A DNA stretch of 32,000 nucleotides. Source: Ardenticatenaceae bacterium (GTDB lineage Bacteria > Chloroflexota > Anaerolineae > Promineifilales > Promineifilaceae). The stretch covers positions 46,932 to 78,931 of the forward strand of contig JACKCC010000021.1 in the NCBI GenBank assembly GCA_020634245.1, in the 5' to 3' direction. The position numbers were made by a program, and so were the translations under genes. Below the pieces are notes generated by a model. The model made no database searches and was not told the origin of the DNA. It saw only the letters and a program-made list of their open reading frames with translations. Positions 3,068-24,393 of this stretch are shown here, one piece after another; position 1 is the first letter of the stretch, and each line of letters opens with the position of its first letter.

Positions 3068-3329
3068 TTAACAGGGTAACGGCCGTACCCACCACCGCTG
3101 CTGCCAGTACAATCATCCGTGTCATATCGGGGATGGGGATACGTTGTGAACGGCCGTTCTCCTCCACCAATACCGCCACCGGCCTGTTCCAGACAAAGCC
3201 ACCGGCGACTGCAGAACGGTTGCCCGGCAGCCGAAGCGACAACACCTGCGCCTGCGGCGTTACTGTCCGATCACCCACCGTCACCGATTGACCATCCTTA
3301 ATTTCCCACTGCCAAAATTTTCCACTCAT
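3036..3329 (-). CDS. Small hypothetical protein with C-terminal transmembrane helix
   Basis: ORF of 97-101 aa. I prefer the ATG at 3329 (MSGKFWQW), which sits 11 nt after GGAGG, over the GTG at 3341 that abuts the SD. There is a hydrophobic stretch IVLAAAVVGTAVTLLI. The last ~9 codons are read out of repeat D. No family recognised. Confidence 0.45.
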   Translation of the reverse strand: MSGKFWQWEIKDGQSVTVGDRTVTPQAQVLSLRLPGNRSAVAGGFVWNRPVAVLVEENGRSQRIPIPDMTRMIVLAAAVVGTAVTLLIKSQSDKAAK

Positions 3330-3562
3330 ATTTTGCTGCACCTCCAGTTTTCATAGGGACGCACCCTTGTGGTCGCCCATTTTGTTTAGCCCATTGGGCA
3401 GGCATAAAGCACGGCCCCTACAAAATTACGATATTAATCGCTAAAAGTTGTCAATTTACGCTGCCTGGATCACAATTACATTGTGCCTTTACTTTAGCAT
3501 AATTTGGAGTTAACACGTCAACGATTTATCAACGAAACAGATTTTAGATTTGGGAGAGTTCC

Positions 3563-6034
3563 ATGTCGAAACGCATCTTAATTTTACTGACCACCTTGTT
3601 AACCGCCATCAGCCTGAACGCACAAACCAACCAACAAACCAATCAGTCCACCACCCTCCTCATCACCGAAGTTTTCTATGATGCCCCCGGTGCGGATGAA
3701 GAACGGGAATGGGTGGAAATCGCCAATGTGGGCACGGCCGTACTCTCCCTCAGTGACATCAAAATTGGCGATGAAGAGGTGCCCGGCGGCGAGGAAGGGA
3801 TGAAACGCTTCCCCGAAGGCGCGCAAATCGAACCGGGACAGGTCATCGTTGTGGCTCAGACGGCGGCTGGATTTTTTGAGTTGTACGGCCGTTACCCCGA
3901 CTACGAAATCACCAATACAAGCGCCAACGTGCCCGACATGCGCCGCTTCTCGGCCTGGGCCACCGGCGATTTTGCCCTGGGCAACGACGGCGACGAACTG
4001 CTCCTGGTCAATGGGATGCGCATCATCGACGCCCTGAGCTACGGTGACCGGACGACCATCTTCAATTCGGCCGTGTCCGGCGTGGCCAGCGGGCAAAGCA
4101 TCGAGCGCCAGCCGGCCAACTGCGACAGCGACACCAGCGCCGACTGGCAAACGCAGCCCGTGCCCACACCGGGCCAAATCAGCCTGGACGATGCCTGCGC
4201 CGCTCCCGCCGAACCAGAATGGGAACCCCTGACGCCTATCGGCGAGATTCAGGGCAGCGGCCCAGTTTCCTCTTATGTCAATGAAACCGTCACCTTTCGC
4301 GGCGTGGTCATCGGCCAGTACGAGGACATCAACACCAGCGGCGTCACCTACTACACCCTGTTCGTGCAAGATTTACCGGGCAGCGAAGACGGCGACCCGG
4401 CCACCTCGGATGGCATAGCGGTGTTTTTGGGGCGGAAACGGCCGTCCACCCCCATCGGCAGCCAAATCCGCATCACCGGCACAGTCACCGAATTCTACGA
4501 CTACACCGAAATCGACGACGCCGGGCTGGAGATTATGCTGGAAATGGCCGATGCTCCCCTGCCCGATCCCGTCGCCATCAGCCTGCCACAGGGCCGCGCG
4601 GCCCAATTGGCCTATTACGAACCGCTGGAAAGTATGCGGGTGACACTGGCAAACACGACCAACGTCACCGGGCCGACCTACAGCGGCTGCGGCTTTGCCG
4701 TCGTCGAGGGCAGCAGCGGCCTGACGCGGGTCTACCGCCGCAGTGCCGACGATTTGGCCCCGCCGGTCATCACCGTTTTGCACACCAGCGACGTAAGCTG
4801 CGGCAGCTTTCCCAACGTCAAAGTGGGCGACACAGTGACCGGCATCAGCGGCCCATTGATCTACAACTTTGACGAGTTCAAGATCGTGCAGCAGGTCACG
4901 GAAGATTTGATGGTGACGGCCGTTCCCCAACCGCCCTTCCCCGCACCGCCCACGCCAGCCGCCCACCAGTTCAGCATCGCCACCTTCAACGTCGAAAACC
5001 ATTTCGACAGCATCGACGATACCGGCAGTGTTGACGAACCCAAGCCCAGCCCTGAAGAAATCGCCGTCAAGCAGGCCAAACTGGTGGCTGCCATCAGCCA
5101 GACGCTGGGCTGCCCGACGTTGCTGGCCATCCAGGAGGTGGAAACGGCCGTTTTGCTGGAAGGTCTGGCTGAGGCTGCTGCTCCTGCCTGCGGATTTACC
5201 TACCAGGTCAGCCATCAGGAGAGCGCCGACGTGCGCGGTATTGACGTGGCCTTGTTGAGTGATCCGGGGCGGGTGGGGGTAACGGCCGTTTCCCTCCAGC
5301 AAGCCTGTACCCTCATGAACACCGGCATCAGCGACCCCGCCATCACCTGCCCCGCCGGACAGCAGCCGCTCTTTTCCCGCCCGCCGCTCCAGGTCAGCCT
5401 GGCCATCGACGGTCAGCCCTATACCATCCTGGTCAACCACTTCAAATCCAAACGCGGTGGCGAAGCGGAAACAGAATTGCGCCGCGTAGCCCAAGCCCAG
5501 CACATCGCCGATCTTGTGACCGATTTGCACGATGACAATTCCACCGCCCGTGTCATCGTCCTGGGCGATTTCAACGATTTTGAGCAGTCGCCGCCGCTGA
5601 ATTTGATGGAAGCCAACGGCCTGACCAACGTGCTGCGGCAAATCCCGGATGAGGCCCGCTACAGCTTTAATTTTGGCGGCGTGTCGCAGTTGATTGATGG
5701 CTTGTTGGTGACGGAAAATCTGGTGGAGACGGTAACGGCCGTGACCATCCAGCATACCAACGCCGATTTCCCCGACAGCCTGGGGCAGGATACCAGTCTG
5801 GCCAACCTGGCCTACAAAACAACCGACCACGATCTGCCGCTGGTAGTTTTCGATTTGTACCCGGAACTGGAACAGCCTACGCCAACGCCGGACACGGCCG
5901 TTTCCCCCACCGCCACACCCGTCAATGACAATCAGGGAGTTGACGAAAGCACATTCAGTTGGTGGGGCTGGCTGGTAGGTGGTTTATTGGTGATGGGAAC
6001 GGCTGTTATCGCCTTTTTCTTCCGTCGTAAATAA
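3563..6034 (+). CDS. Secreted ExeM/NucH-type extracellular nuclease: signal peptide, lamin-tail domain, EEP nuclease domain, C-terminal TM anchor
   Basis: N-terminal signal MSKRILILLTTLLTAISLNA. LTD-like LLITEVFYDAPGADEEREWVEIAN...GDELLLV. EEP motifs FSIATFNVENHFD, VNHFKSK, GDFND and TDHDLPLVVF. The C-terminus WWGWLVGGLLVMGTAVIAFFFRRK is a TM helix plus basic tail. Confidence 0.75.
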   Translation: MSKRILILLTTLLTAISLNAQTNQQTNQSTTLLITEVFYDAPGADEEREWVEIANVGTAVLSLSDIKIGDEEVPGGEEGMKRFPEGAQIEPGQVIVVAQTAAGFFELYGRYPDYEITNTSANVPDMRRFSAWATGDFALGNDGDELLLVNGMRIIDALSYGDRTTIFNSAVSGVASGQSIERQPANCDSDTSADWQTQPVPTPGQISLDDACAAPAEPEWEPLTPIGEIQGSGPVSSYVNETVTFRGVVIGQYEDINTSGVTYYTLFVQDLPGSEDGDPATSDGIAVFLGRKRPSTPIGSQIRITGTVTEFYDYTEIDDAGLEIMLEMADAPLPDPVAISLPQGRAAQLAYYEPLESMRVTLANTTNVTGPTYSGCGFAVVEGSSGLTRVYRRSADDLAPPVITVLHTSDVSCGSFPNVKVGDTVTGISGPLIYNFDEFKIVQQVTEDLMVTAVPQPPFPAPPTPAAHQFSIATFNVENHFDSIDDTGSVDEPKPSPEEIAVKQAKLVAAISQTLGCPTLLAIQEVETAVLLEGLAEAAAPACGFTYQVSHQESADVRGIDVALLSDPGRVGVTAVSLQQACTLMNTGISDPAITCPAGQQPLFSRPPLQVSLAIDGQPYTILVNHFKSKRGGEAETELRRVAQAQHIADLVTDLHDDNSTARVIVLGDFNDFEQSPPLNLMEANGLTNVLRQIPDEARYSFNFGGVSQLIDGLLVTENLVETVTAVTIQHTNADFPDSLGQDTSLANLAYKTTDHDLPLVVFDLYPELEQPTPTPDTAVSPTATPVNDNQGVDESTFSWWGWLVGGLLVMGTAVIAFFFRRK

Positions 6035-6084
6035 GGGGAAAACGCAGTATATGTTTGCGGTTAACTATCATTAGGAGTAATAGC

Positions 6085-7152
6085 TTGAGGTTCCCCCGCG
6101 CTATTTTGCATCTGGATATGGATGCGTTTTATGTCAACGTTCACCGGCTAGACCACCCGGAAGACAGGGGCATTCCGCTGGCCGTGGGCGGCAAGCCCGA
6201 CCAGCGTGGTGTGGTCGCATCGGCCAGTTATGAGGCACGGCAAAAAGGGGTTAGATCGGCGATGCCTACGGCAACGGCCGTACGCCTTTGCCCCAATCTC
6301 AAACTGGTTCCGGCCAACTGGACTCGCATTCGGGAATGTTCCCGCCAGGTCATGGACATTCTGCGTCCCTACGGCCTGCTGGAACAAATCAGTGTTGATG
6401 AAGCGTACATCGATTTGAGCGGACTGGATGAACCGGAGGTTGTCGCCGCCCAAATTCGCTCCGAAGTGAAAGAGAAGACCGGATTGCCGGCCTCGGTGGG
6501 ATTGGCGACGTCGAAGCTGGTGGCCAAGGTTGCCTCTGATTTTGACAAGCCGGAAGGATTCACGATTGTCCCGCCGGACAGCGAAGCCGATTTTTTAGCC
6601 CCGCTGCCGGTGCGTGTTATTTGGGGCATCGGCCCCAAAACGGCGGAAAAACTGGCCGGGCTGGGCATTGAAACTTGTGGTCAACTGGCTCAGGCGGATT
6701 CCGATCAACTGCGGCGGTTTGGTAAACAGGCGCTGGAATTGCAAGAACGGGCGCGGGGTGTGGACGGCCGTTCCGTCCAACCCGATCATGGCCCACCGAA
6801 GAGTATCAGCCAGGAATGGACGTTTAACAGCGATATTGGGGAAACGGCCGTTTTACGGGACAAACTACGCCAGATGTGCGGCGACGTGGCCCAATCCTTG
6901 CAAAAACGAGGGCTGGTGGCTCACACCGTCACCGTCAAATTCCGTTGGTCAGATTTCACCACGTTCACTCGCCAGCGTTCGGTGGCAGTGGGTATTGATG
7001 ATGAGGCGGATATTTTTCGGCTGGCCGAGGCGATCTGGCGGGAAAATTGGCCGGAGAACCGGCCGATGCGGCTGTTGGGTGTGGGGGTGAGTAAGTTGGA
7101 GGAGGAAGGCGGGAAAGAGGGATACGGCCGTCAACTCACCTTTGATTTTTAA
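6085..7152 (+). CDS. dinB: DNA polymerase IV (Y-family translesion polymerase)
   Basis: ILHLDMDAFYVNV, GVVASASYEARQKGVRSAMP, SVDEAYIDL and the little-finger region. The track start is TTG 6055. I prefer the in-frame TTG at 6085, which lies 7 nt after AGGAG (6073-6077). Confidence 0.85.
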   Translation: MRFPRAILHLDMDAFYVNVHRLDHPEDRGIPLAVGGKPDQRGVVASASYEARQKGVRSAMPTATAVRLCPNLKLVPANWTRIRECSRQVMDILRPYGLLEQISVDEAYIDLSGLDEPEVVAAQIRSEVKEKTGLPASVGLATSKLVAKVASDFDKPEGFTIVPPDSEADFLAPLPVRVIWGIGPKTAEKLAGLGIETCGQLAQADSDQLRRFGKQALELQERARGVDGRSVQPDHGPPKSISQEWTFNSDIGETAVLRDKLRQMCGDVAQSLQKRGLVAHTVTVKFRWSDFTTFTRQRSVAVGIDDEADIFRLAEAIWRENWPENRPMRLLGVGVSKLEEEGGKEGYGRQLTFDF

Positions 7153-8540: not shown

Positions 8541-8635
8541 TCATTTGCCGAATGCTATGAATTTTATATCAGATTTAGATAATTTTGGGTAACTTTTATT
8601 ATATTTTTGCTGGATGGCTCAGGAAATTTTCACGA

Positions 8636-9064
8636 TTAGGAATAGTAGGTTTGCAAAATGTACAGAATGGTTTCCCCATAGGCGTTGCTGGCGGTGGCAG
8701 CGTTGAATGAGAGGGTTTCATTTTGATAGCGGATTTGGATGTGGCAACGGCCGTCTACCCACCGCAACTTTAGCTCCTTTTCCCCTTCATCCTTAAGCAG
8801 GTTTTCCAATTCCTGCCGCAGCTGACCTTCGGTAGGCATCCAGACCACTTCCGTCGTCACGATGTAATCCAGCGCCCATTCGGCCGTGCCGTGGAAGGTG
8901 ATGACCGGCCAGCCTTGCAGCAGGTCCAGATGAGCCATCATATCGGTGATGACAAAGATATGATCATCCATACCCCGATCGGGGATGGCAAAAAAGTGAT
9001 GATTGCTGGCCTTCCAGACCAGCCCGGCTTGTTTAAGGGCTTGTGCCAATTCCAGTGAAATCAT
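8636..9064 (-). CDS. Conserved hypothetical protein (142 aa)
   Basis: The track ORF runs to 9178, but the ATG at 9064 forms an ATGA overlap with the stop of the upstream DUF2332 gene (plus-strand tcat at 9061-9064). The product starts MISLELAQALKQAGLVW. No domain recognised with confidence. Confidence 0.55.
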   Translation of the reverse strand: MISLELAQALKQAGLVWKASNHHFFAIPDRGMDDHIFVITDMMAHLDLLQGWPVITFHGTAEWALDYIVTTEVVWMPTEGQLRQELENLLKDEGEKELKLRWVDGRCHIQIRYQNETLSFNAATASNAYGETILYILQTYYS

Positions 9065-10230
9065 GTCGTCTCCTGCCAAAATGCGGCCCAATTGTGCAGC
9101 CCGGACAGCCAGTGAACGGCCGTGCCGTGGGGATGGTTCCAGGCCAGGTGCCAGCGATGATGCCGGCCAGCTTGCCACAAATCGGCCGTCCAGGCTACCC
9201 AGGCGTATTCAGGCGGCTGAGGACCATCCCAGAGCGGTTCCCATTGTATCCATAGGACAGGTCGTTTCTGTGTTGTTGCCCAGTTGGCGATGTGCTGCTG
9301 AAAGGATCGACCTTTATCATCTAAATATACGGTCATGTTTGTATTATAGATGACGACGGGAGAATTAGGGTGAAGGGGCACGGCCGTTGCCAGAAATTCC
9401 GGCAGTTCATTGGGTAGGCGGACCGGATGGAGTTGGACGGGTGGATCGGTTTGATGGAAAGCAGCCAACCCTTCGCGCAGCCGTTCCAGCCGCTGCGGCT
9501 GGTCGGCCCAAATGTAAGCAGCCAGCGTTTGTTCATCTGCCGCAGTTTCCAGCCGGAACGGAGCCAGATCGCAACCGGTGCGGGAGAGGATTTGTGGCTG
9601 GCGGTTGGTTGTTGGCGGCTGGCGGAAGGGGCCTTGCGTTTGCATGGGGAATTGGACGGACTGGCCGCCGCCCACATCAAAAAACTGGTTACCGTTTACC
9701 GCTAACGGGTCACCATAGAAAATGCGGTAATTCCGAGCTTCCGCCACCAGATTCAGTCCGGCACTGGCCCCCAAATCGACTAGATGGACTGCATCCCAAC
9801 TGGTGTAGAGCAGGGGCAGCAGCCAGCAGACGCCGCGTGCTGTTTCGTTGGTCTGGACAGTGGCGGTTTGGACGAAGGGAGCTAACGCATCGCGCCGGGC
9901 GAGGATGGTTTGACGCAGAATGTGAGGCAGTTGGGCGTTGTTGAAATCGCGCTGGCCGCCGACTGAGGGGTAGTATTGGGCTAATTCGGCTGCTTGTGGC
10001 ACTTGATTGAGTACGTCGCGGTGCAGACCGGCCAGTAAAAGCAGAGTGATGTCCAGGGGAGCACGGCCGTTACCCACATCCAACAACCAATCCACCAACG
10101 CATCCTCCCCATCAGCTTCCAACCAATCGGCCACAATGCCAAACAGCCGCGCCGACAGTGGCGAATAACCATCGGCGAATTCCTGCTGTTTGCGAAAACG
10201 GTGGGCTAGTTTTGTGCGGAAATCGTTCAT
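9061..10230 (-). CDS. DUF2332-family protein
   Basis: 389 aa. SPLSARLFGIVADWL, LLLLAGLHRDVL, VQTNETARGVCWLLPLL and LVDLGASAGLNL resemble the DUF2332 family (recollection, not a search). Confidence 0.6.
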   Translation of the reverse strand: MNDFRTKLAHRFRKQQEFADGYSPLSARLFGIVADWLEADGEDALVDWLLDVGNGRAPLDITLLLLAGLHRDVLNQVPQAAELAQYYPSVGGQRDFNNAQLPHILRQTILARRDALAPFVQTATVQTNETARGVCWLLPLLYTSWDAVHLVDLGASAGLNLVAEARNYRIFYGDPLAVNGNQFFDVGGGQSVQFPMQTQGPFRQPPTTNRQPQILSRTGCDLAPFRLETAADEQTLAAYIWADQPQRLERLREGLAAFHQTDPPVQLHPVRLPNELPEFLATAVPLHPNSPVVIYNTNMTVYLDDKGRSFQQHIANWATTQKRPVLWIQWEPLWDGPQPPEYAWVAWTADLWQAGRHHRWHLAWNHPHGTAVHWLSGLHNWAAFWQETT

Positions 10231-10287
10231 GATTGATGATTAATGATTGAAGATTGAGCGGCTCCCAATCATCAATCTTCAATCATT
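10231..10287. repeat. Intercistronic inverted pentamer array B (GATTG x4, then CAATC x3, period 7 nt)
   Basis: GATTG at 10231, 10245 and 10252; GATTA at 10238. CAATC at 10266, 10273 and 10280. Positions 10242-10257 are the exact reverse complement of 10272-10287 (16 bp). The array fills the whole gap between the thiolase stop (10283-10285) and the DUF2332 start (10230). Confidence 0.7.
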
Positions 10288-11434
10288 GACTTTGAGGCTT
10301 TTGCAAAATATGGGTCACAATCGTTGCCCCGCTGCCGCCGATGTTTTGGGTCATGGCCGTGCGTACACCGTCGATTTGGGCTTCGCCGGCCTGACCGCGC
10401 AGTTGCAAGGTGGCTTCGGCCAGTTGATACAATCCTGTTGCGCCCACCGGGTGACCGCGCGCTTTCAGGCCGCCCATGGTGCAGATGGGGATACGGCCGT
10501 TTGGCAAAATATCGCCGTTCTGCGCCAGTCGTACACCCTGGCCCGGCTCGGCAAAACCGCACGCTTCCAGCGAAAGGGCGGCCATCACGCTGAACGCGTC
10601 GTGTAGTTCAAATAGATCGATGTCATCAGGGCCAAGTCCGGCCTGTCCATATGCCTTGTTGGCTGAGATTTCGGCTGCCTTCAACCACAGCGGGTCTTCC
10701 CGGTCGTGGATGGCCAGCGTATCGATAGCTGACGCCGAACCGACGACCCGTACTGCATCCGGCGCTTTCTCCACCGGAACCAGCAGCAGCGCCGCCGCGC
10801 CGTCACCAATGGGAGAAGCATCAAACAGGGTGATGGGGTCGGCCACAATCCGACCGCGAGCGTACGTTTTTTGCGTGATGGGTTCCCGGAACAAAGCGTT
10901 GGGGTTTTTGGCCCCGTTGGCGTGAGCGTTGATGGGGAAGGGGGCGAAATCGTCGTGTTGGTAGCCGTATTCGTGCATGTAGCGGCGCATGATCAGCGCA
11001 TTCAGCCCGACGAAGGAGACGCCATGAACTGCTTCGTAATCGGCATCAGCCGCCGTAGCCAGCGCGGCCGTGATTTCTTTGCCTTGCGGCTCGGTCATTT
11101 TCTCCACGCCAATGACCAGTGCCGCATCCATTTCGCCGCTGGCGACGCCGATGATGCCTTGGCGCATGGCCGACCCGGCCGATCCGCAGGCTGCTTCCAA
11201 TTTAACCGCTTCCACACCCCATTGGCCCAGAAAATCGGCCACCAGTGCGCCCAGATGGCGCTGCTGGTTCATTTCGCCGCTGCTCATATTGCCCACAAAA
11301 ATGCCGTCTACCCGCTGGATGCCGGCATCTTCCATGGCGGCGCGCCCGGCATTAACGGCCAGTTGGCGGATGGGCACATCCCAATGTTCGCGCACCGGCA
11401 TTTGCCCGACGCCTAAAATGGCAACTTGTCGCAT
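10283..11434 (-). CDS. Thiolase-family protein (acetyl-CoA acetyltransferase / SCP-x-like thiolase)
   Basis: 383 aa. MRQVAILGVGQMP, the active-site region KLEAACGSAGSA, the C-terminal GGLKARGHPVGATG and NIGGSG motifs. GGAGG lies 6 nt upstream of the ATG. Confidence 0.8.
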   Translation of the reverse strand: MRQVAILGVGQMPVREHWDVPIRQLAVNAGRAAMEDAGIQRVDGIFVGNMSSGEMNQQRHLGALVADFLGQWGVEAVKLEAACGSAGSAMRQGIIGVASGEMDAALVIGVEKMTEPQGKEITAALATAADADYEAVHGVSFVGLNALIMRRYMHEYGYQHDDFAPFPINAHANGAKNPNALFREPITQKTYARGRIVADPITLFDASPIGDGAAALLLVPVEKAPDAVRVVGSASAIDTLAIHDREDPLWLKAAEISANKAYGQAGLGPDDIDLFELHDAFSVMAALSLEACGFAEPGQGVRLAQNGDILPNGRIPICTMGGLKARGHPVGATGLYQLAEATLQLRGQAGEAQIDGVRTAMTQNIGGSGATIVTHILQKPQSQ

Positions 11435-11444
11435 TCATTACCTC

Positions 11445-11477
11445 CGAAATAAAAAGATGGCATTTGTTTGCCATCTT
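11445..11477 (-). terminator. Rho-independent terminator after the 11552..11956 ORF
   Basis: On the minus strand, AAGATGGCA-aacaaa-TGCCATCTT (9-bp stem, 11454-11477) is followed by TTTATTTC. It lies immediately upstream of the thiolase SD. Confidence 0.55.
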
Positions 11478-11551
11478 CGATTGTATCATTTTGTACTGTC
11501 AGAAACTGTCAAGTGAAGTCAGAACTCTATCAAATACAAATTCTCACATGT

Positions 11552-11956: not shown

Positions 11957-11969
11957 GTTTTGACCCCTA

Positions 11970-13127
11970 TTAAGGAATATTTGCTGATGCTGTTTGGGGA
12001 TACGGCCGTTTCCCCAGTACCATAACCAGCCCTACAATCGTCAGCACTATTGTGCCGAAGATGACAAACATCTCGCGCCCACTGACAACGTCCAACAGCA
12101 GCCCGCCGCTAAAACCGCCTACGGCCATGCCCAAACCGCCGACTGTAGCCCCGAACAGCCCCTGCGCCGTCGCATTCAGGCCAGGGGGAGCATTTTGGTC
12201 GGCGTAAGCCACACCAGCCAGCCACATGAGCGGATAGCCCAGCCCATTGAGGAGCTGCACCGGAAAGATCAGCCAGATGGTATTGATGATTGCCAGCAGC
12301 AGCAGACGCACGCCAGAAATGGCAACAGCCAGAGTGACGAGAGTGTAGGGCTGGAATCGTTTGAGGAGATGATGGCTGAAAATGAGGATGGGGATTTCGG
12401 CCAGTGTGCCAGTCATGAGAATCAACCCCATGATAGAGGATTCAGCGCCCAGTTCCTTCACATAGGGCAAAAGATAGTTAGTGGTGGTGGCCACGTTTAA
12501 GCCACCGGCAAAGGCCATCGCTAAAAAGAGAATGAATGGGCGGTTTTGCAGCAGGGTGCGCGCACCCTGCCGGATTGGGGTTGTTTTCTGGGATTGATTG
12601 TATTCCAACTTCTGGCTGACCAGCAAACCCAGAAATAACATCACACTGCCGCCCCAAAAGGCCATCTTCAGTCCGTAGTTTTCGACCAATGATCCGGCCA
12701 AAATTGCCGCCAGCCCAAATCCAAAGGTGCCGCCAACGCGGACACGGCCGTACCTATCCTTCACTTCACCCAGCATAAACATGGTGGCACTGTCGGCCAG
12801 TGAATTAATCGGTGCAAAGAAAAGATTAAAGGTAGCGACCAGGAGTAGAACTGGCAAAAATGATCGTAACAACGGCAGCAAAACCATGCTCAAGCTGCTC
12901 AGCAGCAGAGTCAGGCTCATGATGAAGCGGTGCCGGTTGCTGGTGTCGGCTAATCCGGTCCACAGCGGCGCACTCAACATCGTGATAAGCGGCGCTAATC
13001 CAGTCAACAGGCCAATTTGCGCGCCGGAAAAGCCCAGTTCCCGGTAGTAAAGCACGGTGAACGGGCCTATGAAAGCAACGCAGGCAAAGAAGAAGAAACT
13101 AATGGAAAATGGCCAAATATTTTTCAT
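11970..13127 (-). CDS. MFS transporter
   Basis: About 12 hydrophobic segments. The ATG at 13127 (MKNIWPFSISFFFF) makes an ATGA overlap with the stop of the upstream kinase-like gene (plus-strand tcat at 13124-13127). Confidence 0.75.
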   Translation of the reverse strand: MKNIWPFSISFFFFACVAFIGPFTVLYYRELGFSGAQIGLLTGLAPLITMLSAPLWTGLADTSNRHRFIMSLTLLLSSLSMVLLPLLRSFLPVLLLVATFNLFFAPINSLADSATMFMLGEVKDRYGRVRVGGTFGFGLAAILAGSLVENYGLKMAFWGGSVMLFLGLLVSQKLEYNQSQKTTPIRQGARTLLQNRPFILFLAMAFAGGLNVATTTNYLLPYVKELGAESSIMGLILMTGTLAEIPILIFSHHLLKRFQPYTLVTLAVAISGVRLLLLAIINTIWLIFPVQLLNGLGYPLMWLAGVAYADQNAPPGLNATAQGLFGATVGGLGMAVGGFSGGLLLDVVSGREMFVIFGTIVLTIVGLVMVLGKRPYPQTASANIP

Positions 13128-13720: not shown

Positions 13721-13784
13721 GAGCTGATGTTTCCTGTGTTTGTGGTGGGGTAACGGCCGTGGCCATCCCAAGCAGCCTACTCAA

Positions 13785-13852: not shown

Positions 13853-14929
13853 CTACTCCGCTTCAATCATCATTGTCCAACCAAAGCGGTCGGGGATACG
13901 GCCGTATTGAATCCCGGTCAACTCATCAAATAACTGTTTGGCAACCGGGCCGACCTCATAATTATTGATGATGTACTCCTCATCCTTGTAGCCAAACTTG
14001 CCTACCGGGGCAATAACCGCCGCCGTTCCGCAGCCAAAAACCTCTGTAATTCTGCCTGATTGGACATCGGCCAACATCTCGTTGACATCAATTTGTTCCT
14101 CGCTGACCTCATAGCCCAGGTCGCGGCCCAGGGTGAGAACCGAGTCGCGGGTGACGCCAGGCAGGATACTGCCGGTTAATTGCGGCGTGACGATGTGCTT
14201 GCCCTCGTAAACAAAGGCGATGTTCATGGCGCCTACTTCTTCAATGTAACGGCCCTCAATGGCATCCAGCCACAGTACTTGTGAATACCCTTTGGTTTTG
14301 GCATCTTCGCCAACAAAGAGGCTGGCGGCATAGTTGCCGCCGGTTTTGGCGCTGCCCACGCCGCCGCGCACCGCCCGCCGGTACTGGTCGGAGATGTAGA
14401 CGGGTACGGGATTGAATCCTTCCTTGAAGTAGGAACCCACCGGGCCGATAATGACGTAGTGTAAATATTCGGTGCTGGCGTGAACGCCCAACGCAGCTTC
14501 AGTGGCGATCATCGTGGGGCGGATGTAGAGGGCGGCTCCGGGAACGCGGGGAACCCATTTGCTTTCCAATTCTACCAGCTTGGCGATGGCGGCTAGATGT
14601 TCTTCCTCATCGACGGGGGCCATGGCCATACGCCGGGCGGAGTTGTTGAACCGTTTCATGTTTTCCCAGGGACGGAACAGGTTGATGTTGCCGTCGGGGC
14701 GGCGGTAGGCTTTGAGTCCTTCGAAGATTTCCTGGGCGTAGTGGAATACGGCCGTTGCCGGATCCAACGTAAATGGCGCATAAGGTCCAATTTGGGCATC
14801 ATGCCAGCCGACACCGGCCGTATATTTTTGGCTGAACATGCGGTTGGCAAATTTATTGCCAAAGCCAAAATCATGTTCCGGTACCGGTTTCAGTTTGGTT
14901 TCGTCCAGAGGTAGAATTTGTATGTCCAC
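13853..14929 (-). CDS. ilvE: Branched-chain amino acid aminotransferase (long, class IV type)
   Basis: FHYAQEIFEGLKAYRRPDG.INLFRP..N..R, LYIRP, GGVGSAKTGGNYA and GTAAVI. The track start is TTG 14983 with no SD. GTG 14929 is preceded by AAGGAG (14935-14940) and aligns with the N-terminus of Bacillus-type IlvE as I remember it. Confidence 0.85.
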   Translation of the reverse strand: MDIQILPLDETKLKPVPEHDFGFGNKFANRMFSQKYTAGVGWHDAQIGPYAPFTLDPATAVFHYAQEIFEGLKAYRRPDGNINLFRPWENMKRFNNSARRMAMAPVDEEEHLAAIAKLVELESKWVPRVPGAALYIRPTMIATEAALGVHASTEYLHYVIIGPVGSYFKEGFNPVPVYISDQYRRAVRGGVGSAKTGGNYAASLFVGEDAKTKGYSQVLWLDAIEGRYIEEVGAMNIAFVYEGKHIVTPQLTGSILPGVTRDSVLTLGRDLGYEVSEEQIDVNEMLADVQSGRITEVFGCGTAAVIAPVGKFGYKDEEYIINNYEVGPVAKQLFDELTGIQYGRIPDRFGWTMMIEAE

Positions 14930-15036
14930 GATTTCTCCTTTTGAGCCATAGAGCGTTGCAAAGGACAGGATATTATCTGTCAAACCCTATGGGGTGTATT
15001 GGGATTCAGTTTGTTAATGACTTGTTGCCGCACCAC

Positions 15037-15722: not shown

Positions 15723-15724
15723 GT

Positions 15725-18625
15725 TTAGTCCTCGCGAAAAGTGTTTGTTTTGTCAACGGCCGTTTTGGTGAGGGGCCAAAACAGGCGAAAAGTGCTGCCC
15801 GCTTCCAGTTTGCTTTCAACCTCAATTGTGCCTTTATGTAAATCCAGGATTTCTTTGACGATGGTCAGGCCTAATCCGGTGCCGGGAATGTTTAATTGGG
15901 CGATGTTGTGACCGCGATAAAAGCGTTCAAAAATATGGGGTATTTCGTCGGCGGGAATCCCAATGCCGGTGTCTTTGATTTCCAGGCAGGCGCGGGTGGC
16001 GCTGGCCAGGTAGGTGCGGACGGTTATGGAGCCTTCCAGAGTGAAATCCAGGGCGTTGGTGAGGACGTTGTTGATGGCTTGCAGGAGTTGGTTGCGTTCG
16101 GCGCGGATGGGCGGCAAGTCTGGTTCAGGATGAAAAACGAGGTTGAGATCGGCGGCTTTGGCGCGTTCCTGGTTCATGGCAATGACGATGGCGATGGTGT
16201 CATTGAGGTCAACGGCCGTAAACTGCAAAGACTCTTCGTACAAATTCAGCCGGGAAACGTTGAGGATGTCCTCCGTTAGCCGTACCAACTGGTCGGTTTT
16301 TTGGCGCAAAACGTCCATGTATTTGGCTTTGTTCTCTGCTTTGCCGCGATCCAGTAAATCCATGTACAGGTTCAAGGTGGCTACGGGTGTACGCAGTTCA
16401 TGCGAAATGTCGGAGATGAATTTGGTTTTGAGTTTGTCCAGGTCTTGCAGGCGGGCGTTGGCTTCGGCCAGTTCACGGGTGCGCTGTGTAACCCGTTCTT
16501 CCAGGGTGTCGGTGATGCTGGCGCGTTTGAGGGCATTGGCGGCGATGTCGGCAACGGCCGTTAACAGGCGTACATCGGCTTCGGTAAACAGCCGTCTTTT
16601 GTGCGAACCGATGTGCAGCACACCGATCAAGTCATCCGGCGTTTGCAGCGGCAAAAAGATCGAACTGACGGTTCCCACAAAACTTTCCTCTTCGCCGGGA
16701 GCCATCGATAAAAGCGGGTCGTTAGCCACGTCAGGCGAAAGATAAACCTCGCGGGTAGCCAGAACACGCCCCACAATGCCGTCCCCCGGTGGCTGGCGCA
16801 GCCCTAATTTGTAAAAGCCGGGCGGTTCTGAATACCGGGAAATCAGTTCATCTGTTTCCGGTTCAACCAGGAATAGAACGCCGAAGGTGGCATCAATGGC
16901 GGCCACTGTTTTTTCCATTAAAATGGCCATCATATCAGGTACGGTGCGGGCGGTACGCAAAGAAGTAGAGATTCCGGCCAGTGTTTCCAGCTCAAAAGCG
17001 TGCTGGCGAGTCTCTTCGTAAAGGCGGGCGTTTTCAATGGCAACGGCTGCCTGGGCGGCAAAGGCGCTGGCCAACCGGACGTGTTCCTGGTTATAAAAGC
17101 CGATTTCTCTTTTGTCCAGGGCCAGCATACCGATGATCTGTTGGCCGAAAATGAGGGGAACGCCCAGCCAGGAATGAATGGGTGTTTCGCTAAACGGCGG
17201 CTCTCGGAAACGGCCGTATAAACTTGGCGCATCAGCCAAAATAACCGGTGACCAGGTTTCAATCACTTGCCGGTTAGGGTTGTTGGTCGAGGTCAGGTCA
17301 AACTTTGCTCCCAAGAGCTTGTTCAAGTCGGCAAAACCGTAGCCGCCAATGATTTCAAGAAATGAGCCATTTTTTAACTGCTGGACAGAAGCACTATCAT
17401 ACGGAACTACTTTTTGTAGCTCTTCCAAAATGCTGTCCAGTACGTCTTGTAAAATCAAACTGCTGCTTAATGCCTGGGTAGCCGCTTGTAAGCGTTCGGC
17501 ACGGTCACGCGCCGCCTGTTCTTCCTGAAACAAATAAGCTGTTTGTATAGCCAGGGCACATTGCTGGGCAAAATCTTGCAGTATTTTTAGGTCGTCTGAG
17601 GTGAATGTGCGGATATTTCCGGCGGTTTCCTGGCAGCTTATGACTCCCATCACCTTGTTGGTCAGGGTGATGGGAACCTGGATGACGCTGCCCAGTACGT
17701 TGAAGGAGATACTTTGGGAACGGCCGGGGTATTTATCGTAGTCGGGGACAATCATGGGCTGACCGGTAGCTAAGACGCGCCCGGCCATTCCCTCGCCTAC
17801 CCGAAGCTGTGATCCCACCAGCGGTTCGCCTGGCCCGTGTACGGCCGTCAACGTCAGTGTTAGTTCATCATCATTAACCAGATAAATACTGCCGCCGGGA
17901 ACGCCCAGTAGATTTGCTGCCCGCCTTGCAATAGCTTGCAGCAGCTCGTGTAGATCGCGATGGGAGAGAATATCCAACGAGATTTCTTTTAACGCAGTAA
18001 GCTGATCCGCCCGTTGATTTGACGTATTGAGTAAACCGGTCAATTCTGTCTGCCGTTTCAATTCTAACTGGTGGCGATAGTGGGCGGCCAGAATATTGGC
18101 CGTGCTGGCTGCTAATATCAGGTTAAAAGGGCCAATCAGGATGTCGTAAAGGGGAACGGCCGGGTTGTAGAGTGGCATGGTAAGCATGGCCAGGAGGGAT
18201 ACGGCCGTAAACACAATCGCATATTTTGGCGAAAGAAACAGGCTGCTCAACAGGATAAGCAGAATCAAATAATAAAGCGAAATCAGGTTGTTTGGCGGCT
18301 TACCAATGTAAGCAGCGACCAAAACAGTCGACAGGCCAATAACAGTGGTCAGAATGATTGAAGCCTGGTAGCTTAAAAATCGGCCAAATAAATAGGTGAT
18401 GCCCAAAAAGATAAAACTGGCCAGAGCGGTCAATAAAAAAGGAATCTGGGAAGGAATATTTTCCGGGTGAAGCAAAAAGGGAATAAAAATGCCTAAAGTG
18501 GCAATGGGCATGACCGACAACAGCAGGACAAGAAACAGACGAACCTGGAGACGTTCATTATCGCCTTGAATGTCCATACGTGGCTCCGTAAGACTTTTCC
18601 ACACACTGAGCAGCTTGTCTTTCAT
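15725..18625 (-). CDS. Membrane sensor histidine kinase with multiple GAF domains
   Basis: 966 aa. There are about 6-7 N-terminal TM helices and three GAF-like repeats (for example GGSIYLV...GEGMAGRV and GDGIVGRV). H-box SHELRTPV. HATPase motifs NALDFT, DTGIGI and [12 protein letters not shown]. The stop is 2 nt before the mgsA start. Confidence 0.85.
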
Positions 18626-18805
18626 AATAAAGCAGGACCTGTTGTCCTGACTGGAAATTGAACGGCCGTTTGACCCTTTTTTGAGAAATAATCACACATT
18701 CACACAATCATAATACCCGACTTGGGTTGAAAAAAGAAGATAAAACCGGGATTCACTCGTGTGACTTTTGTTCCATCTTTAATGACCATGTTATGATCAG
18801 GGTGC

Positions 18806-19579
18806 ATGTACCCGATTTTAGCCCGTTATGGTCCTTTTTTCTTGTACAGTTTTACTGTTGTATTAAGTATAGGCATTGCTGCTGCATTAGGGTTGGCTGC
18901 TTATCGTGCCCGCCGTTTGAAGGTGGATGCTGCCTGGCTGGATACGTTTTTGGCCGGATTGGCGGCGGCTTTGATCAGCGGCCGTGTGGGGTTTGTCTGG
19001 CTGGAATGGACATATTTTCAGGTACGGCCGTATCAAATATTACAAATCTGGCGTGGCGGGCTGACCTATCATGGGGCGTTGGTCGGTGGCTTGCTGGGGA
19101 TGTGGGTCTGGTGTGCATGGCGTAAACGCCCATTTTTGTGGGACGCTGATTTACTGGCTCCTTCACTGGTTTTACTAAATGCTTTTGGTTGGTTGGCCTG
19201 CTGGTTGGATGGTTGTGGTTACGGCCGTATCGCCCCCGTCGGCAGTATTCTGGCGGCCAATCTCCCCGACAACCTGGGCATTTATGATTGGCGCTACCAG
19301 ACGCAGCTGCTGGGTGTCGGCTTGAGTCTGCTGACTTTTATCCTCATCCTTGTCAGAGCACGCCGTGGCCAGACTTTTACTATTGCGCTGTTGGCCGTCA
19401 GTGTAGGGCGGATTGGTGTTGATTGGCTGCGGGGGAATACGGCCGTTCTCATTCATACCATCCGATTAGACCTGCTCCTGGACACAGCATTAGCGATCCT
19501 TTCCTTGATTCTGTTACAATATTCTCAAATGCAACGAACAAAATCGTCAATCGTCAAACATCAATCGAAAATCAAATGA
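18806..19579 (+). CDS. lgt: Prolipoprotein diacylglyceryl transferase
   Basis: 257 aa polytopic membrane protein. YGPFFLYSFTVVLSIG, GRVGFV, IWRGGLTYHGALVGG and CGYG resemble Lgt. Confidence 0.7.
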   Translation: MYPILARYGPFFLYSFTVVLSIGIAAALGLAAYRARRLKVDAAWLDTFLAGLAAALISGRVGFVWLEWTYFQVRPYQILQIWRGGLTYHGALVGGLLGMWVWCAWRKRPFLWDADLLAPSLVLLNAFGWLACWLDGCGYGRIAPVGSILAANLPDNLGIYDWRYQTQLLGVGLSLLTFILILVRARRGQTFTIALLAVSVGRIGVDWLRGNTAVLIHTIRLDLLLDTALAILSLILLQYSQMQRTKSSIVKHQSKIK

Positions 19580-20424: not shown

Positions 20425-20487
20425 TCAAGTAGTCGTTAGTCTTGTAGTCGAATACTCAGACTACCCGACTACAAGACTACCCGACTG
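20422..20487. repeat. Intercistronic inverted pentamer array C (TAGTC x4, then GACTA x3 + GACTG, period 7-8 nt)
   Basis: TAGTC at 20422 (contains the TAG stop of the hydrolase), 20430, 20437 and 20445. GACTA at 20459, 20467 and 20475; GACTG at 20483. Positions 20437-20450 are the exact reverse complement of 20466-20479 (14 bp). GACTACCCGACT is directly repeated at 20459 and 20475. Confidence 0.7.
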
Positions 20488-20498
20488 GAGCAATGTAG

Positions 20499-21434
20499 AT
20501 GATTGACGATTTTGAACGACTGGACGATGAACCGGAAGGCCATAAATCGGGTTTTGTGACGGTGGTGGGCCGGCCCAATGTGGGCAAAAGTACGCTGATT
20601 AATGTTGTTTTGGGCCAGAAGATTGCCATTGTGACGCCGCGCCCGCAAACGACTCGTGTCCGCCAACTGGGTATTTTGACAGAAGAGAATTATCAAATGG
20701 TGTTTGTGGATACGCCGGGGATTATGCAGCCGCGGCACAAGTTGGATGAGTTTATGGTGGAAACGGCCGTAACCGCCCTAAACGATGCCGATGTGGTCTT
20801 GTGGCTGGTGGACGGCAGCGAAATGCCCGGCCCTGGCGATCAGTCCATCGCCGCCCTGTTTGCCGAACTGGACGAAAATGTGCAAGTTGTGCTGGGTATC
20901 AACAAGGGTGACATGCTGTCGGTTGAGCAGGTTTTGCCCCATACCGAAGCGTATCGTGCCCTGGTCCCCGACGCTAATTGGATTTTGTTTTCGGCGCTGC
21001 GGGGTAACGGCCGTGACGAACTGCTGCAAATGCTGGTCAATGCCCTGCCCGAAGGCCCGCGCTACTTCCCGGCCGATCAGGTCACCGATTTGTACTTGCG
21101 TGACATCGTTGCCGAACTCATCCGCGAGCAGATTATGCTGCAAATGCGCGATGAAGTGCCCTACGGCGTCGCCGTCCAAACCGAGCAGTACAAAGAGCGC
21201 GAGAACGGCGTTACTTACATTGGAGCTAATATTTTTGTGGAGCGTGACAGCCATAAGCGGATTCTGATTGGGGCAAAAGGGGCCCAGCTGCGGCAAATTG
21301 GCGCTGCCGCCCGCCACGAAATCGAAGCATTTCTTGAAGGGAAAGTGTTCCTGGATTTGTGGGTGAAAGTGGAACCCAAATGGCGGCGCAATGAACGCGT
21401 CCTCAAACGGTTTGGCTACAGCAGCGCAGAATAG
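20499..21434 (+). CDS. era: GTPase Era
   Basis: GFVTVVGRPNVGKSTLIN, TTR, DTPGI and NKGD, plus a C-terminal KH domain (VERDSHKRILIGAKGAQLRQIG). GGAG lies 8 nt upstream. Confidence 0.92.
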   Translation: MIDDFERLDDEPEGHKSGFVTVVGRPNVGKSTLINVVLGQKIAIVTPRPQTTRVRQLGILTEENYQMVFVDTPGIMQPRHKLDEFMVETAVTALNDADVVLWLVDGSEMPGPGDQSIAALFAELDENVQVVLGINKGDMLSVEQVLPHTEAYRALVPDANWILFSALRGNGRDELLQMLVNALPEGPRYFPADQVTDLYLRDIVAELIREQIMLQMRDEVPYGVAVQTEQYKERENGVTYIGANIFVERDSHKRILIGAKGAQLRQIGAAARHEIEAFLEGKVFLDLWVKVEPKWRRNERVLKRFGYSSAE

Positions 21435-21545
21435 TTACCGGAGGCCGTCGCGTCTAATCAATGTGCAACGGCACGGCAAATTTGAACGTATTGGGTGCAA
21501 AAATCAGAAGCGTATCGTATTAGGTGTACTGGCAGGAGGTTTTAC

Positions 21546-22568
21546 ATGTCAGCCAAGCAAACCGAAGAATTGGTAAATCGACGCAAGTTTTTGAAAGCCG
21601 CCGCGGTTACGGCCGTTGCCGCTACTGCTACCGGCGCTGGCGCATCCCTGCTTAATTCACAAAAATCAGCGCAGTTACCCGGCCAATCACTAACTGCGAC
21701 CATCCAGAAAAATGGCTCAAACGAGGAGTTAATTACCCAACTGACTGCGCTCCAGGCTGAAAACGCCCGCTTGCAAGCCGATCTGGAACTGGCCAATTAC
21801 CGCCTGAGTGCTCAGGAAACGGCCGTCACCGAAACCGACACGGCTGCGCAAACCATGTCCATAGAACTGGAGGCAGCCAATCAGCAAATTGGCATTCTGG
21901 CTGGACTGGTTGCCCTGTACGAACAACTCGATGATGCCGACGTAATGTCCTTGTTCGAAGAAGGTCTGACGGCTGTCTCTACCGCTATCACCGATGCTGT
22001 GGATGAACTGCCCAGCCTATCCGAAGGAATAGCGCTGGGCCGCCAGATTCTAACTGAGTTGGATGACCAGATTCCATTATTGGCGAACGGCCGTTCCTGG
22101 CTCGAAACCCAAACCGACAAAATGTACCGCTACTATACGGCCGTCGAAGTTTTGTTGGAAACAGCCGTTGAACAGGTTGGCCCATTCCTGCAAATGTTCA
22201 ATGAATGGGTTCAAAAAATCCTCAAATGGCTGCCGTTCAATTTGGGCGAGCGTACCAGCACCATCATGGACGCCCTGACCACGCTGCTGCTAGAAACACC
22301 AACTACCCTTACCGGTCTTTACACCAACGTCACCGAACCACTGGCCGCCTGGGTGGGCGGGCCAGACACCGAAGTGCCATTGCGCCAGAAACTCATCCAA
22401 CCTATGCGGGAACAGATGCTGTCCCAGGCCGACACAGTCGTTGCTAAAACGGTCCAGGTCAAGGTGGTTTATGAAGAAAATATGGTGCGGCAGGTGGAAA
22501 CGGCCGTGATCGCCCGCCGACAAATCCAAAATCTCATCCAATCCTACCGGCAGCAACACCAAATCTAG
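21546..22568 (+). CDS. Hypothetical Tat-signal protein with coiled-coil segment
   Basis: The ATG at 21546 lies 7 nt after AGGAGG (21533-21538). The N-terminus NRRKFLKAAAVTAVAATATGAGA is a twin-arginine signal. LQAENARLQADLELANYRL is coiled-coil-like. No family recognised. Confidence 0.55.
   Translation: MSAKQTEELVNRRKFLKAAAVTAVAATATGAGASLLNSQKSAQLPGQSLTATIQKNGSNEELITQLTALQAENARLQADLELANYRLSAQETAVTETDTAAQTMSIELEAANQQIGILAGLVALYEQLDDADVMSLFEEGLTAVSTAITDAVDELPSLSEGIALGRQILTELDDQIPLLANGRSWLETQTDKMYRYYTAVEVLLETAVEQVGPFLQMFNEWVQKILKWLPFNLGERTSTIMDALTTLLLETPTTLTGLYTNVTEPLAAWVGGPDTEVPLRQKLIQPMREQMLSQADTVVAKTVQVKVVYEENMVRQVETAVIARRQIQNLIQSYRQQHQI

Positions 22569-23190: not shown

Positions 23191-24393
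<1,203 letters not shown>

Follow-up and report, generated by a model that had tools for sequence, protein, structure and literature searches.

A Highly Iterated Octameric Palindrome Shared by Promineifilaceae-like Chloroflexota and Viral Contigs: A Likely Counterpart of the HIP1 Repeat Outside the Cyanobacteria

Introduction

The DNA analysed here, referred to as the window, is a stretch of 32,000 nucleotides from an Ardenticatenaceae bacterium (assembly GCA_020634245.1, contig JACKCC010000021.1, positions 46,932 to 78,931). One octamer, the perfect palindrome ACGGCCGT, occurs in it 50 times, that is, 1.56 times per kb or about once every 640 bases. The palindrome is a word of the DNA itself, not a by-product of peptides or codons, and it is a highly iterated palindrome (HIP) in the broad sense of the term; it is not HIP1, the octamer iterated in cyanobacteria, of which it is likely the non-cyanobacterial counterpart. 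Our favoured explanation, which we hold to be probable, is that ACGGCCGT is the HIP of Promineifilaceae-like Chloroflexota and of viral contigs, a functional analogue of HIP1 centred on methylation.

Abundance and Reading Frames of the Palindrome

Dinucleotide-preserving shuffles of the window (n = 100) contained a mean of 0.45 copies and at most 2, against the 50 observed, an observed/expected ratio of about 110. The excess is 25-fold under an unmasked third-order Markov model, and ACGGCCGT was 18- to 26-fold enriched in the third-order Markov test that explained other candidate words. Over 96 kb pooled across the lineage, a masked second-order model puts it 63-fold over expectation. The palindrome is the top 8-mer of the window: the runners-up all overlap it, the best unrelated 8-mer has 11 copies, and each of its 24 one-mismatch variants has 0–4. 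The hexamer CGGCCG within it occurs 73 times, so the site depletion that restriction avoidance would produce is not seen here. The hyper-abundance first noticed in a reading of the letters alone, the sequence-only reading below, is confirmed.

A gene map of the window was drawn up from open reading frames (ORFs) and from Pfam, tRNA, and Rfam results. The first half contains lon, an alkD-like gene, a nuclease gene with LTD and endo/exonuclease/phosphatase (EEP) domains, dinB, a pucC-like gene, a DUF2332 gene, and genes for a thiolase, an MFS transporter, a class IV aminotransferase, and MGS. The middle has a GAF histidine kinase gene, lgt, a CN-hydrolase gene, era, a hypothetical gene, tRNA-Thr/Tyr/Thr, tuf, rpmG, and tRNA-Trp, and the end has secE, nusG, rplKAJL, maf, and genes for a TPR protein, a PP2C phosphatase, and RNase J.

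When the copies are placed on this map, 28 of the 50 are read as ACG-GCC-GTn, which encodes Thr-Ala-Val (TAV), six of these lying in the nuclease gene at 3563–6034. Sixteen are read as nAC-GGC-CGT (xGR, with Asn in six, Tyr in seven, Asp in three, and His in none), four as CGG-CCG (Arg-Pro, RP), and two, at 18662 and 25089, are intergenic. The tally given by the sequence-only reading is reproduced exactly; it holds for the whole window, and not for the interval 3079–22507 to which it had been attached and which contains 41 copies. Depending on the status of ORF 8636–9178(−), 47 or 48 copies are inside genes. The word thus occurs in every frame, in genes of either strand, and between genes, with a skewed distribution, and intergenic DNA is not enriched for it (2–3 copies in 3.8 kb). 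From 1785 to 22507 the copies are spaced more evenly than random (coefficient of variation 0.74, p = 0.03).

The copies, located by exact-word search and gene mapping, are as follows. Coordinates are window positions, the palindrome itself has no strand (.), signs in brackets belong to genes, and L numbers designate related loci.

1785..1792 (.), TAV copy, DNA-alkylation-repair gene 1754–2452(−)
2631..2638 (.), TAV copy, hypothetical ORF 2570–3001(−)
3079..3086 (.), TAV copy, hypothetical ORF 3036–3341(−)
3150..3157 (.), NGR copy, hypothetical ORF 3036–3341(−)
3734..3741 (.), TAV copy, nuclease gene 3563–6034(+), LTD and endo/exonuclease/phosphatase domains
3885..3892 (.), YGR copy, nuclease gene 3563–6034(+)
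4438..4445 (.), Arg-Pro copy (K-RP-S), nuclease gene 3563–6034(+)
4916..4923 (.), TAV copy, nuclease gene 3563–6034(+)
5144..5151 (.), TAV copy, nuclease gene 3563–6034(+)
5282..5289 (.), TAV copy, nuclease gene 3563–6034(+); extended palindrome GGGGGTA-core-TTCCC from 5275
5735..5742 (.), TAV copy, nuclease gene 3563–6034(+)
5894..5901 (.), TAV copy, nuclease gene 3563–6034(+)
6274..6281 (.), TAV copy, dinB 6055–7152(+); common to L001; QAV, SAL, or APC in other relatives
6764..6771 (.), DGR copy, dinB; common to L001 and L002; DDR or DVR in more distant relatives
6844..6851 (.), TAV copy, dinB; common to L001; AAV, PQI, or PEE in other relatives
7124..7131 (.), YGR copy, C-terminus of dinB, adjoining an indel relative to orthologs
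8747..8754 (.), DGR copy only if the unverified ORF 8636–9178(−) is a gene, otherwise intergenic upstream of pucC
9116..9123 (.), TAV copy, DUF2332 gene 9061–10230(−)
9380..9387 (.), TAV copy, DUF2332 gene 9061–10230(−)
10063..10070 (.), NGR copy, DUF2332 gene 9061–10230(−)
10493..10500 (.), NGR copy, thiolase gene 10283–11434(−)
12002..12009 (.), Arg-Pro copy, MFS transporter gene 11970–13142(−); best 20-bp palindrome, GGGGATACGGCCGTTTCCCC, at 11996–12015
12744..12751 (.), YGR copy, MFS transporter gene 11970–13142(−)
13753..13760 (.), Arg-Pro copy, hypothetical ORF 13124–13771(−)
13898..13905 (.), YGR copy, class IV aminotransferase gene 13853–14983(−); word in 3/3 aligned orthologs (L083, L090, L091)
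14748..14755 (.), TAV copy, class IV aminotransferase gene 13853–14983(−); word in 3/3 aligned orthologs
15756..15763 (.), TAV copy, GAF histidine kinase gene 15725–18625(−)
16212..16219 (.), TAV copy, GAF histidine kinase gene 15725–18625(−)
16554..16561 (.), TAV copy, GAF histidine kinase gene 15725–18625(−)
17210..17217 (.), YGR copy, GAF histidine kinase gene 15725–18625(−)
17841..17848 (.), TAV copy, GAF histidine kinase gene 15725–18625(−)
18201..18208 (.), TAV copy, GAF histidine kinase gene 15725–18625(−)
18662..18669 (.), intergenic copy, gap between histidine kinase gene and lgt
19024..19031 (.), Arg-Pro copy, lgt 18806–19579(+); common to L083, L090, and L091; GCGGCCGG in L084 and L086
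19221..19228 (.), YGR copy, lgt; orthologs have YGR by other codons, YGK, or YGQ
19439..19446 (.), TAV copy, lgt; also within the 5′ extension of the CN-hydrolase ORF
20763..20770 (.), TAV copy, era 20499–21434(+); word in 7/14 aligned sequences, window included
21007..21014 (.), NGR copy, era; word in 13/15 aligned sequences, window included, missing only in L092 and L093
21609..21616 (.), TAV copy, hypothetical gene 21495–22568(+)
21819..21826 (.), TAV copy, hypothetical gene 21495–22568(+); window-specific; orthologs have QNN, QAN, or TAV by other codons
22087..22094 (.), NGR copy, hypothetical gene 21495–22568(+)
22137..22144 (.), TAV copy, hypothetical gene 21495–22568(+)
22500..22507 (.), TAV copy, hypothetical gene 21495–22568(+); word in 9/11 aligned sequences, window included
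25089..25096 (.), intergenic copy, gap between secE and nusG
25257..25264 (.), DGR copy, nusG 25127–25780(+); common to L091
28911..28918 (.), TAV copy, maf 28512–29201(+); common to L091
29130..29137 (.), TAV copy, maf 28512–29201(+); common to L091
29814..29821 (.), TAV copy, TPR protein gene 29391–30125(+)
30626..30633 (.), NGR copy, PP2C phosphatase gene 30217–31140(+)
31902..31909 (.), YGR copy, RNase J-like gene from 31169 to window end (+)

A Word of the DNA, Filtered by Protein Tolerance

The sequence-only reading had held that selection or mutation bias acts on the DNA, and had named codon-preserving shuffles as the comparison by which that view should be judged. Synonymous-codon shuffles within genes, which leave the proteins unchanged, gave 6.1 ± 2.3 copies (n = 1000, maximum 15) against 48 in genes, and codon-order shuffling gave 0.85; the motif count is not reproduced. 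With the same word in three frames, on both strands, and in unrelated proteins, the DNA-level interpretation is supported. The proteins bear the imprint of the word. TAV is the commonest tripeptide of the window proteins (31 against 4.3 expected), 28 of the 31 being encoded by ACGGCCGTn, and the N/Y/D-GR tripeptides of the window are all encoded by ACGGCCGT. The observed/expected ratio of TAV is 7.7–8.7 in the lineage (8.7 in the ORFs of its other loci), compared with 0.74–0.84 in about 785,000 ORF residues of other Chloroflexota and unrelated loci.

The proteins, in turn, decide where copies persist. There are none in lon, pucC, tuf, and the ribosomal-protein genes, an absence that we attribute to protein tolerance, whereas poorly conserved genes (those for the nuclease and the hypothetical proteins, dinB, and lgt) reach 3–6.5 per kb. 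In the ORFs of cellular relatives, the frames TAV, xGR, and RP occur in the ratio 66:39:12, and the distinct site columns of the alignments divide 27:14:2. The viral ORFs discussed below have a flatter ratio, 99:83:36 (p = 0.04 against cellular), and HGR also occurs in them. Because the same skew is found in cellular relatives and is weaker in viral ORFs, it reflects tolerance and is not an intrinsic property of the word. Protein tolerance thus determines both the place and the frame in which copies persist, in the order TAV > xGR > RP, which bears out its role as the filter that the sequence-only reading had envisaged.

Some features of the genes around the copies may be recorded here. The pucC gene (7149–8540) belongs to the PucC family of bacteriochlorophyll-associated MFS proteins and lies in a lineage not known as phototrophic; it is without a copy in the window and in L001 and L002, the two relatives aligned. 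The spacer between it and the DUF2332 gene (8541–9060) is 520 bp long, against 65 bp in L002, and contains the copy at 8747 and the unverified ORF 8636–9178(−). A conserved cluster at 22697–28421 comprises tRNA-Thr, tRNA-Tyr, tRNA-Thr, tuf, rpmG, tRNA-Trp, secE, nusG, rplK, and rplA and ends with an L10 leader (RF00557, 27137–27329), rplJ, and rplL. Its order is like that of the tufB region of E. coli, but rpoB does not come next, and only two palindrome copies are found in its approximately 6 kb.

The Flanking Halo

The octamer is bordered by preferred bases. Upstream, G stands at −4 in 41 of the 50 copies and at −3 in 32, and A or T (W) at −1 in 40; downstream, W is found at +1 in 36, C at +3 in 26, and C at +4 in 32. 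When both sides are folded together, p values range from 1e-9 to 1e-25 at +1, +3, and +4, and positions beyond ±4 have little information. The supported consensus is GGnW-ACGGCCGT-WnCC; GGNWACGGCCGTWNCC is a flank-bearing form of the palindrome. Non-random flanks with A or T next to the motif had been described in the sequence-only reading and are found. Its longer palindromic halo is real but shorter than claimed: the full 20-mer GGGGAW...WTCCCC is not supported. An extended palindrome that it placed at 5276 exists and starts at 5275.

In the 28 TAV copies, flank positions −4, −1, +1, and +4 are codon third positions. At these wobble positions, G is found in 22/28 (background 0.28, p = 3.5e-8), C in 23/28 (background 0.31, p = 3e-8), A in 16/28 (background 0.19, p = 8e-6), and T in 15/28 (background 0.28, p = 0.004). 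A preference at synonymous positions means that the recognised unit is longer than 8 bp, as had been suggested from the letters alone. Furthermore, the flank is G-rich upstream and C-rich downstream on either coding strand, and this independence of the coding strand identifies the halo as a palindromic extension at the DNA level. The GGnW...WnCC halo is seen again, varying slightly between lineages, at 138 sites of relatives.

The left and right arms of the halo are independent of one another. A site has on average 2.56 complementary pairs where 2.50 would be expected (z = 0.6; z = 1.1 for the window alone), and the full 16-mer occurs 5 times, with 6.4 expected from independent arms. Pairwise flank identity (best 15/20) and the number of similar pairs equal those of column-shuffled controls. 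Taken separately, either flank favours W immediately beside the octamer (±1) and, at ±3 and ±4, two C residues downstream or two G residues upstream. Independent arms without shared flanks indicate a half-site preference, as expected of a two-fold symmetric reader. A hairpin or cruciform reading of the halo was ruled out, arm complementarity being that of the shuffled expectation.

Copies Arise in Place and Are Retained

Codon alignments were made for the 10 copy-bearing genes having orthologs. In them, the copies take up existing codons without change of length, and only the copy at 7124 adjoins an indel. The alternative states at TAV columns are VAV, EAV, AAV, QAV, DAV, TAL, or TAA, and at xGR columns they are NGR by other codons, YGQ, YGK, SGR, or EGR; unrelated peptides take their place in variable regions. 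An alignment of orthologs was one of the checks proposed in the sequence-only reading, and the columns do show states of the SAL/QAV/AAV and YGK/YGQ types opposite TAV and xGR in the window. Some copies are clade-wide, such as the NGR copy of era (13/15 aligned sequences), and others belong to a single sub-lineage. Sharing within the lineage extends to 65% of copies, compared with 8–9% of in-phase control 8-mers, at 61–80% nucleotide identity and for pairs that are not phylogenetically independent. Where a copy is not shared, its partner is ordinary diverged sequence with a mean of 3.7 mismatches, and among these non-shared states (n = 153) intermediates with one or two mismatches are few, 19 and 17.

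Copies, then, arise in place by ordinary point substitution, preferentially at xAV, TAx, xGR, or YGx, and once formed are kept far better than neighbouring sequence. A templated process, which the sequence-only reading had entertained as their source, is unsupported in view of the in-place substitution, the control-like flank identity, and the independent arms.

Lineage Distribution, the CGGCCG Core, and Its Flanks

The closest genome match to the window is a Candidatus Promineifilaceae metagenome-assembled genome (L001), with a PucC 89% identical and 24 copies of ACGGCCGT in 16 kb; exact look-ups of two proteins of the window returned no record. Ten metagenome loci with Era 65–90% identical (L081–083, L085, L088–091, L094, L118) have 1.5–3 copies per kb. 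This density is thus found in 11 cellular loci of relatives, and more distant Chloroflexota have zero or near zero. The palindrome serves as a marker for a clade of Promineifilaceae-like Chloroflexota together with viral contigs.

CGGCCG is the site of the restriction enzymes EagI and Eco52I. In L092 (4.7 kb, Era 62% identical), 6 of 7 CGGCCG sites lie within GCGGCCGC, the NotI site, which is 15- to 40-fold in excess there. The density of CGGCCG in L084 and L086 is 4.5–5 per kb, and the bases around it show no preference. Opposite ACGGCCGT copies of the main lineage, low-word relatives such as these often retain CGGCCG and differ at positions 1 or 8. Likewise, in the 96 kb pooled, one-mismatch variants are about 2-fold enriched only at positions 1 and 8 and are at or below expectation at inner positions. 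The CGGCCG core and its flanks are, therefore, separable.

Among related loci longer than 10 kb, 17 of 69 have 0–1 CGGCCG where 3–20 are expected (Poisson p down to 3e-9), which looks like avoidance of the hexamer under CGGCCG-specific restriction that would be widespread in the phylum. The CGGCCG-poor loci include L006, L007, L008, L014, L023, L026, L031, L034, L036, L064, and others. Elhai has described for HIP1 and CGATCG a constant restriction-modification core with varying flanks, and sister lineages that purge the site (PMC4390886). The constant core, variable flanks, and purged sister lineages found here mirror that arrangement.

Other words with high raw counts in related loci (L007, L012, L064, L109; Phototrophicaceae loci) were considered as further HIPs and rejected: CGCGCGCG/GCGCGCGC, with as many as 41 copies per 21 kb, and CGCCGGCG, with 10–14. 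The third-order Markov observed/expected ratios of CGCCGGCG and CGCGCGCG are about 1.1–1.2 in most sets; the model largely accounts for them, and their abundance is compositional.

Viral Contigs and the Methyltransferase Search

A scan of IMG/VR for two ACGGCCGT copies 40–70 bp apart returned at least 120 loci, and among the matches listed at least 24 longer than 2 kb have 1–4 copies per kb. L236 (1–14989) has 31 copies in 15 kb, some of them inside capsid and terminase genes, and is a real phage region with an HK97-type capsid (10392–12917) and a GpA terminase (3066–4841). Other IMG/VR loci bearing the palindrome are L140, L180, L123, L134, L197, and L177.

A 59-kb viral contig (L243, L209, L195) has 139 CGGCCG in 21 kb (L243 1–21341), against 9.4 expected under a first-order model, and encodes a 5-methylcytosine (m5C) DNA methyltransferase (L209 1253–2596) next to repressor-like genes. 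It is the only m5C methyltransferase found by motif scan in the 24 word-rich viral loci. Its homologs are at most 46% identical full-length and at most 56% in the best segment on viral contigs, and at most 52% full-length in a set of 5.8 billion proteins. As a candidate for the enzyme of the word it was a dead end, having no close homologs and relatives without CGGCCG excess. Dcm-type methylases with predicted CGGCCG specificity have been reported in Halobacteria (PMC6471742).

Proposed Explanation and Alternatives

We propose that a two-fold symmetric protein would read ACGGCCGT on double-stranded DNA, with the CGGCCG core as the essential contact. The core would most likely be the site of a resident cytosine methyltransferase, with a partner reading the flanks. 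New copies originate as point mutations in near-cognate sequence, and protein tolerance sets the frame pattern. The fixation and retention of copies would be biased by selection for function, by methylation-linked biased repair, or by both. The wider proposition is that of an independent non-cyanobacterial HIP system: the same palindrome in a Chloroflexota family and in phage-like contigs at 1.5–4 per kb, with sub-lineage flanks A...T, G...C, or none, and with sister lineages purging CGGCCG completely. We regard this proposition as evenly balanced.

Several observations weigh against the methylation-centred explanation. Motif scans of the window and of about 65 kb of cellular relatives' loci revealed no methyltransferase or restriction gene, and the closest viral homologs of the L209 methyltransferase, together with two further relatives, are on contigs with normal or depleted CGGCCG. 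The suggested link to methylation is one of analogy. The A/T flank misfits Elhai's G-m5C mismatch-repair ratchet, which the L092 variant GCGGCCGC would fit. Conservation alone fits selection and biased repair alike. Finally, the even spacing of copies did not recur in L001, L083, L090, or L091, and the correlation of copy density with ortholog identity in the window is weak (rho = −0.42, p = 0.08, n = 18).

The alternatives are taken in the order of credibility that we give them. The first is that the word is a functionless, neutral epiphenomenon, into which a CGGCCG methyltransferase and methylation-linked mismatch or short-patch repair ratchet near-cognates, and whose decay they reverse. Elhai's model for exceptional HIPs works in this way (PMC4390886). 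The rarity of intermediates with one or two mismatches and the lack of enrichment of inner one-mismatch variants, as if near-cognates were quickly converted, are in its favour, as is the presence of the word in viral contigs, one with capsid and terminase genes. Such a ratchet, however, accounts for one methylated position and its neighbour and not for the preference at ±3 and ±4, and the A/T flank departs from the G-m5C rule. The scanned window and cellular relatives' loci yielded no gene for repair or methylation. Moreover, known excesses caused by repair, for example that of CCWGG in E. coli, amount to about 2-fold, and the excess here is 25- to 100-fold. We think a neutral ratchet unlikely.

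A second alternative makes the word a self-recognition or DNA-uptake signal that marks the lineage's DNA for uptake, recombination, or sparing by defence systems, and accumulates by molecular drive as the uptake sequences of Neisseria and Haemophilus do. The word shares with such sequences its density, its core and halo, its preference among frames, its scarcity in conserved proteins, and its lineage-specific flank variants. The viral contigs, which bear the word at host density or higher, do not fit, given that the uptake sequences known to us are non-palindromic and phage-depleted; nor does the lack of intergenic enrichment. HIP1 has recently been proposed as a methylation-dependent transformation enhancer (bioRxiv 10.1101/2024.09.10.611283; 10.64898/2026.06.24.733823), which lends this alternative some weight, and we nevertheless doubt it.

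Templated copy-paste of a palindromic unit of about 20 bp, or a miniature mobile element, is suggested by a few copies with long palindromic flanks, such as that at 11996–12015. It is contradicted by the in-frame position of nearly all copies inside genes, by their replacement of existing codons, and by flanks and 16-mer counts that match those of controls and of independent arms, and we consider it very improbable. Lastly, a by-product of TAV/xGR peptide usage and codon preference, to which the unremarkable chemistry of TAV and xGR and the preferred Ala and Gly codons GCC and GGC might have pointed, has practically no chance, being refuted by the synonymous shuffles and at odds with a TAV excess (7-fold) confined to this lineage, a word shared by three frames, both strands, and intergenic DNA, and a halo at wobble positions.

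Implications

For about 30 years, neither the role of HIP1 nor the manner of its accumulation has been settled, and all the examples known come from cyanobacteria. The frame skew and the halo are what a HIP should show; ACGGCCGT is of interest as a second system that is independent phylogenetically, varies in its flanks, and is carried by phages. A second HIP in another phylum, with a different core, sub-lineage flank variants, and sharing with viruses, would give comparative leverage. Explanations specific to GATC or Dam, or to Elhai's G-m5C rule, become testable where they should fail, and the presence and absence of genes across word-rich, flank-variant, and CGGCCG-lacking lineages could point to the reader or methyltransferase. 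If this is indeed an independent HIP system outside the cyanobacteria, HIPs would be a convergent, general outcome of the interplay of methylation, restriction, and repair or self-marking, and the variation among sub-lineages and phages would be a natural experiment for finding the protein that reads the word. The word has also changed a proteome, TAV being 7- to 9-fold over-represented, and it provides a sharp compositional marker for binning contigs of the lineage and for linking phages to it in wastewater and sediment metagenomes.

Comparison with Known Systems

Repetitive extragenic palindromic (REP) elements and miniature inverted-repeat transposable elements (MITEs) are, like ACGGCCGT, repeated palindromic sequences dispersed through genomes. 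They are, however, units of 20–150 bp that are intergenic, inserted, and hairpin-forming, whereas the unit here is 8 (up to 16) bp, in frame within genes, born by substitution, and without covariation of its arms. ACGGCCGT does not, therefore, belong with intergenic inserted hairpin units.

In the Dcm/Vsr system of E. coli, the methylation site CCWGG is about 2-fold over-represented through biased repair of T:G mismatches. Biased repair at a methyltransferase site is likewise a possible source of new ACGGCCGT copies. The excess in E. coli is, however, confined to the site, whereas it is 25- to 100-fold here and the constraints reach ±4. Nor are deamination products of ACGGCCGT clearly depleted: with small counts, ATGGCCGT/ACGGCCAT have an observed/expected ratio of 1.6, and ACGGTCGT/ACGACCGT are found 0 times against 2.0 expected.

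The DNA uptake sequences (DUS) and uptake signal sequences (USS) of Neisseria and Pasteurellaceae occur about once per kb, have a core with weaker flanks, show a frame bias within genes, are depleted in conserved proteins, and have flank variants among lineages. The same features are found in ACGGCCGT, at about 1.5 per kb. To our knowledge, uptake sequences are not palindromic and are depleted in phage and foreign DNA; ACGGCCGT differs in being a perfect palindrome that viral contigs carry at 1–4 per kb, and it has neither the asymmetry nor the phage depletion of that class.

The closest likeness is to HIP1 (GCGATCGC), which occurs in cyanobacteria at 0.2–2.7 per kb, is 16- to 317-fold enriched, is found in all three frames, and is conserved (PMC5861425). 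Fewer HIP1 copies are found in highly expressed genes, and HIP1 has palindromic extensions; its variants GGGATCCC, TCGATCGA, and CAGGCCTG share a methyltransferase core (PMC5861425; PMC4390886). In the literature searched, HIPs appear only in cyanobacteria, and none is paired with Chloroflexota, Anaerolineae, Ardenticatenia, or Promineifilum; nor did this literature contain a report of the ACGGCCGT palindrome, the best 20 of 291 raw matches to the string being unrelated (mostly antibodies, vaccines, and eukaryotic biology).

ACGGCCGT differs from HIP1 in its core, which is CGGCCG and lacks the GATC found inside the CGATCG of HIP1, and in its host, Chloroflexota and not cyanobacteria. Its A/T flanks misfit the G-m5C model proposed for HIP1, its one-mismatch variants are not generally enriched, and it is abundant on viral contigs too. 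The strict definition of HIP1, GCGATCGC in a cyanobacterial genome, thus leaves it outside. In other respects, the two agree. Both are octameric palindromes and the single most abundant 8-mer, and ACGGCCGT, at 1.6 per kb and 25- to 110-fold enrichment, exceeds the HIP threshold of at least 0.2 per kb and at least 16-fold of Xu et al. 2018. Both occur in all frames and between genes, are conserved among orthologs well above control motifs, and are scarcer in highly expressed or conserved genes. Both have palindromic flank extensions and sub-lineage variants that keep a 6-bp core corresponding to a Type II restriction-modification site, the deviations being concentrated at positions 1 and 8. Because of these shared features, we class ACGGCCGT as a HIP in the broad sense: the top 8-mer, HIP-like in frequency and enrichment, present in all frames and in non-coding DNA, conserved in orthologs, lineage-wide, and palindromic in its flanks.

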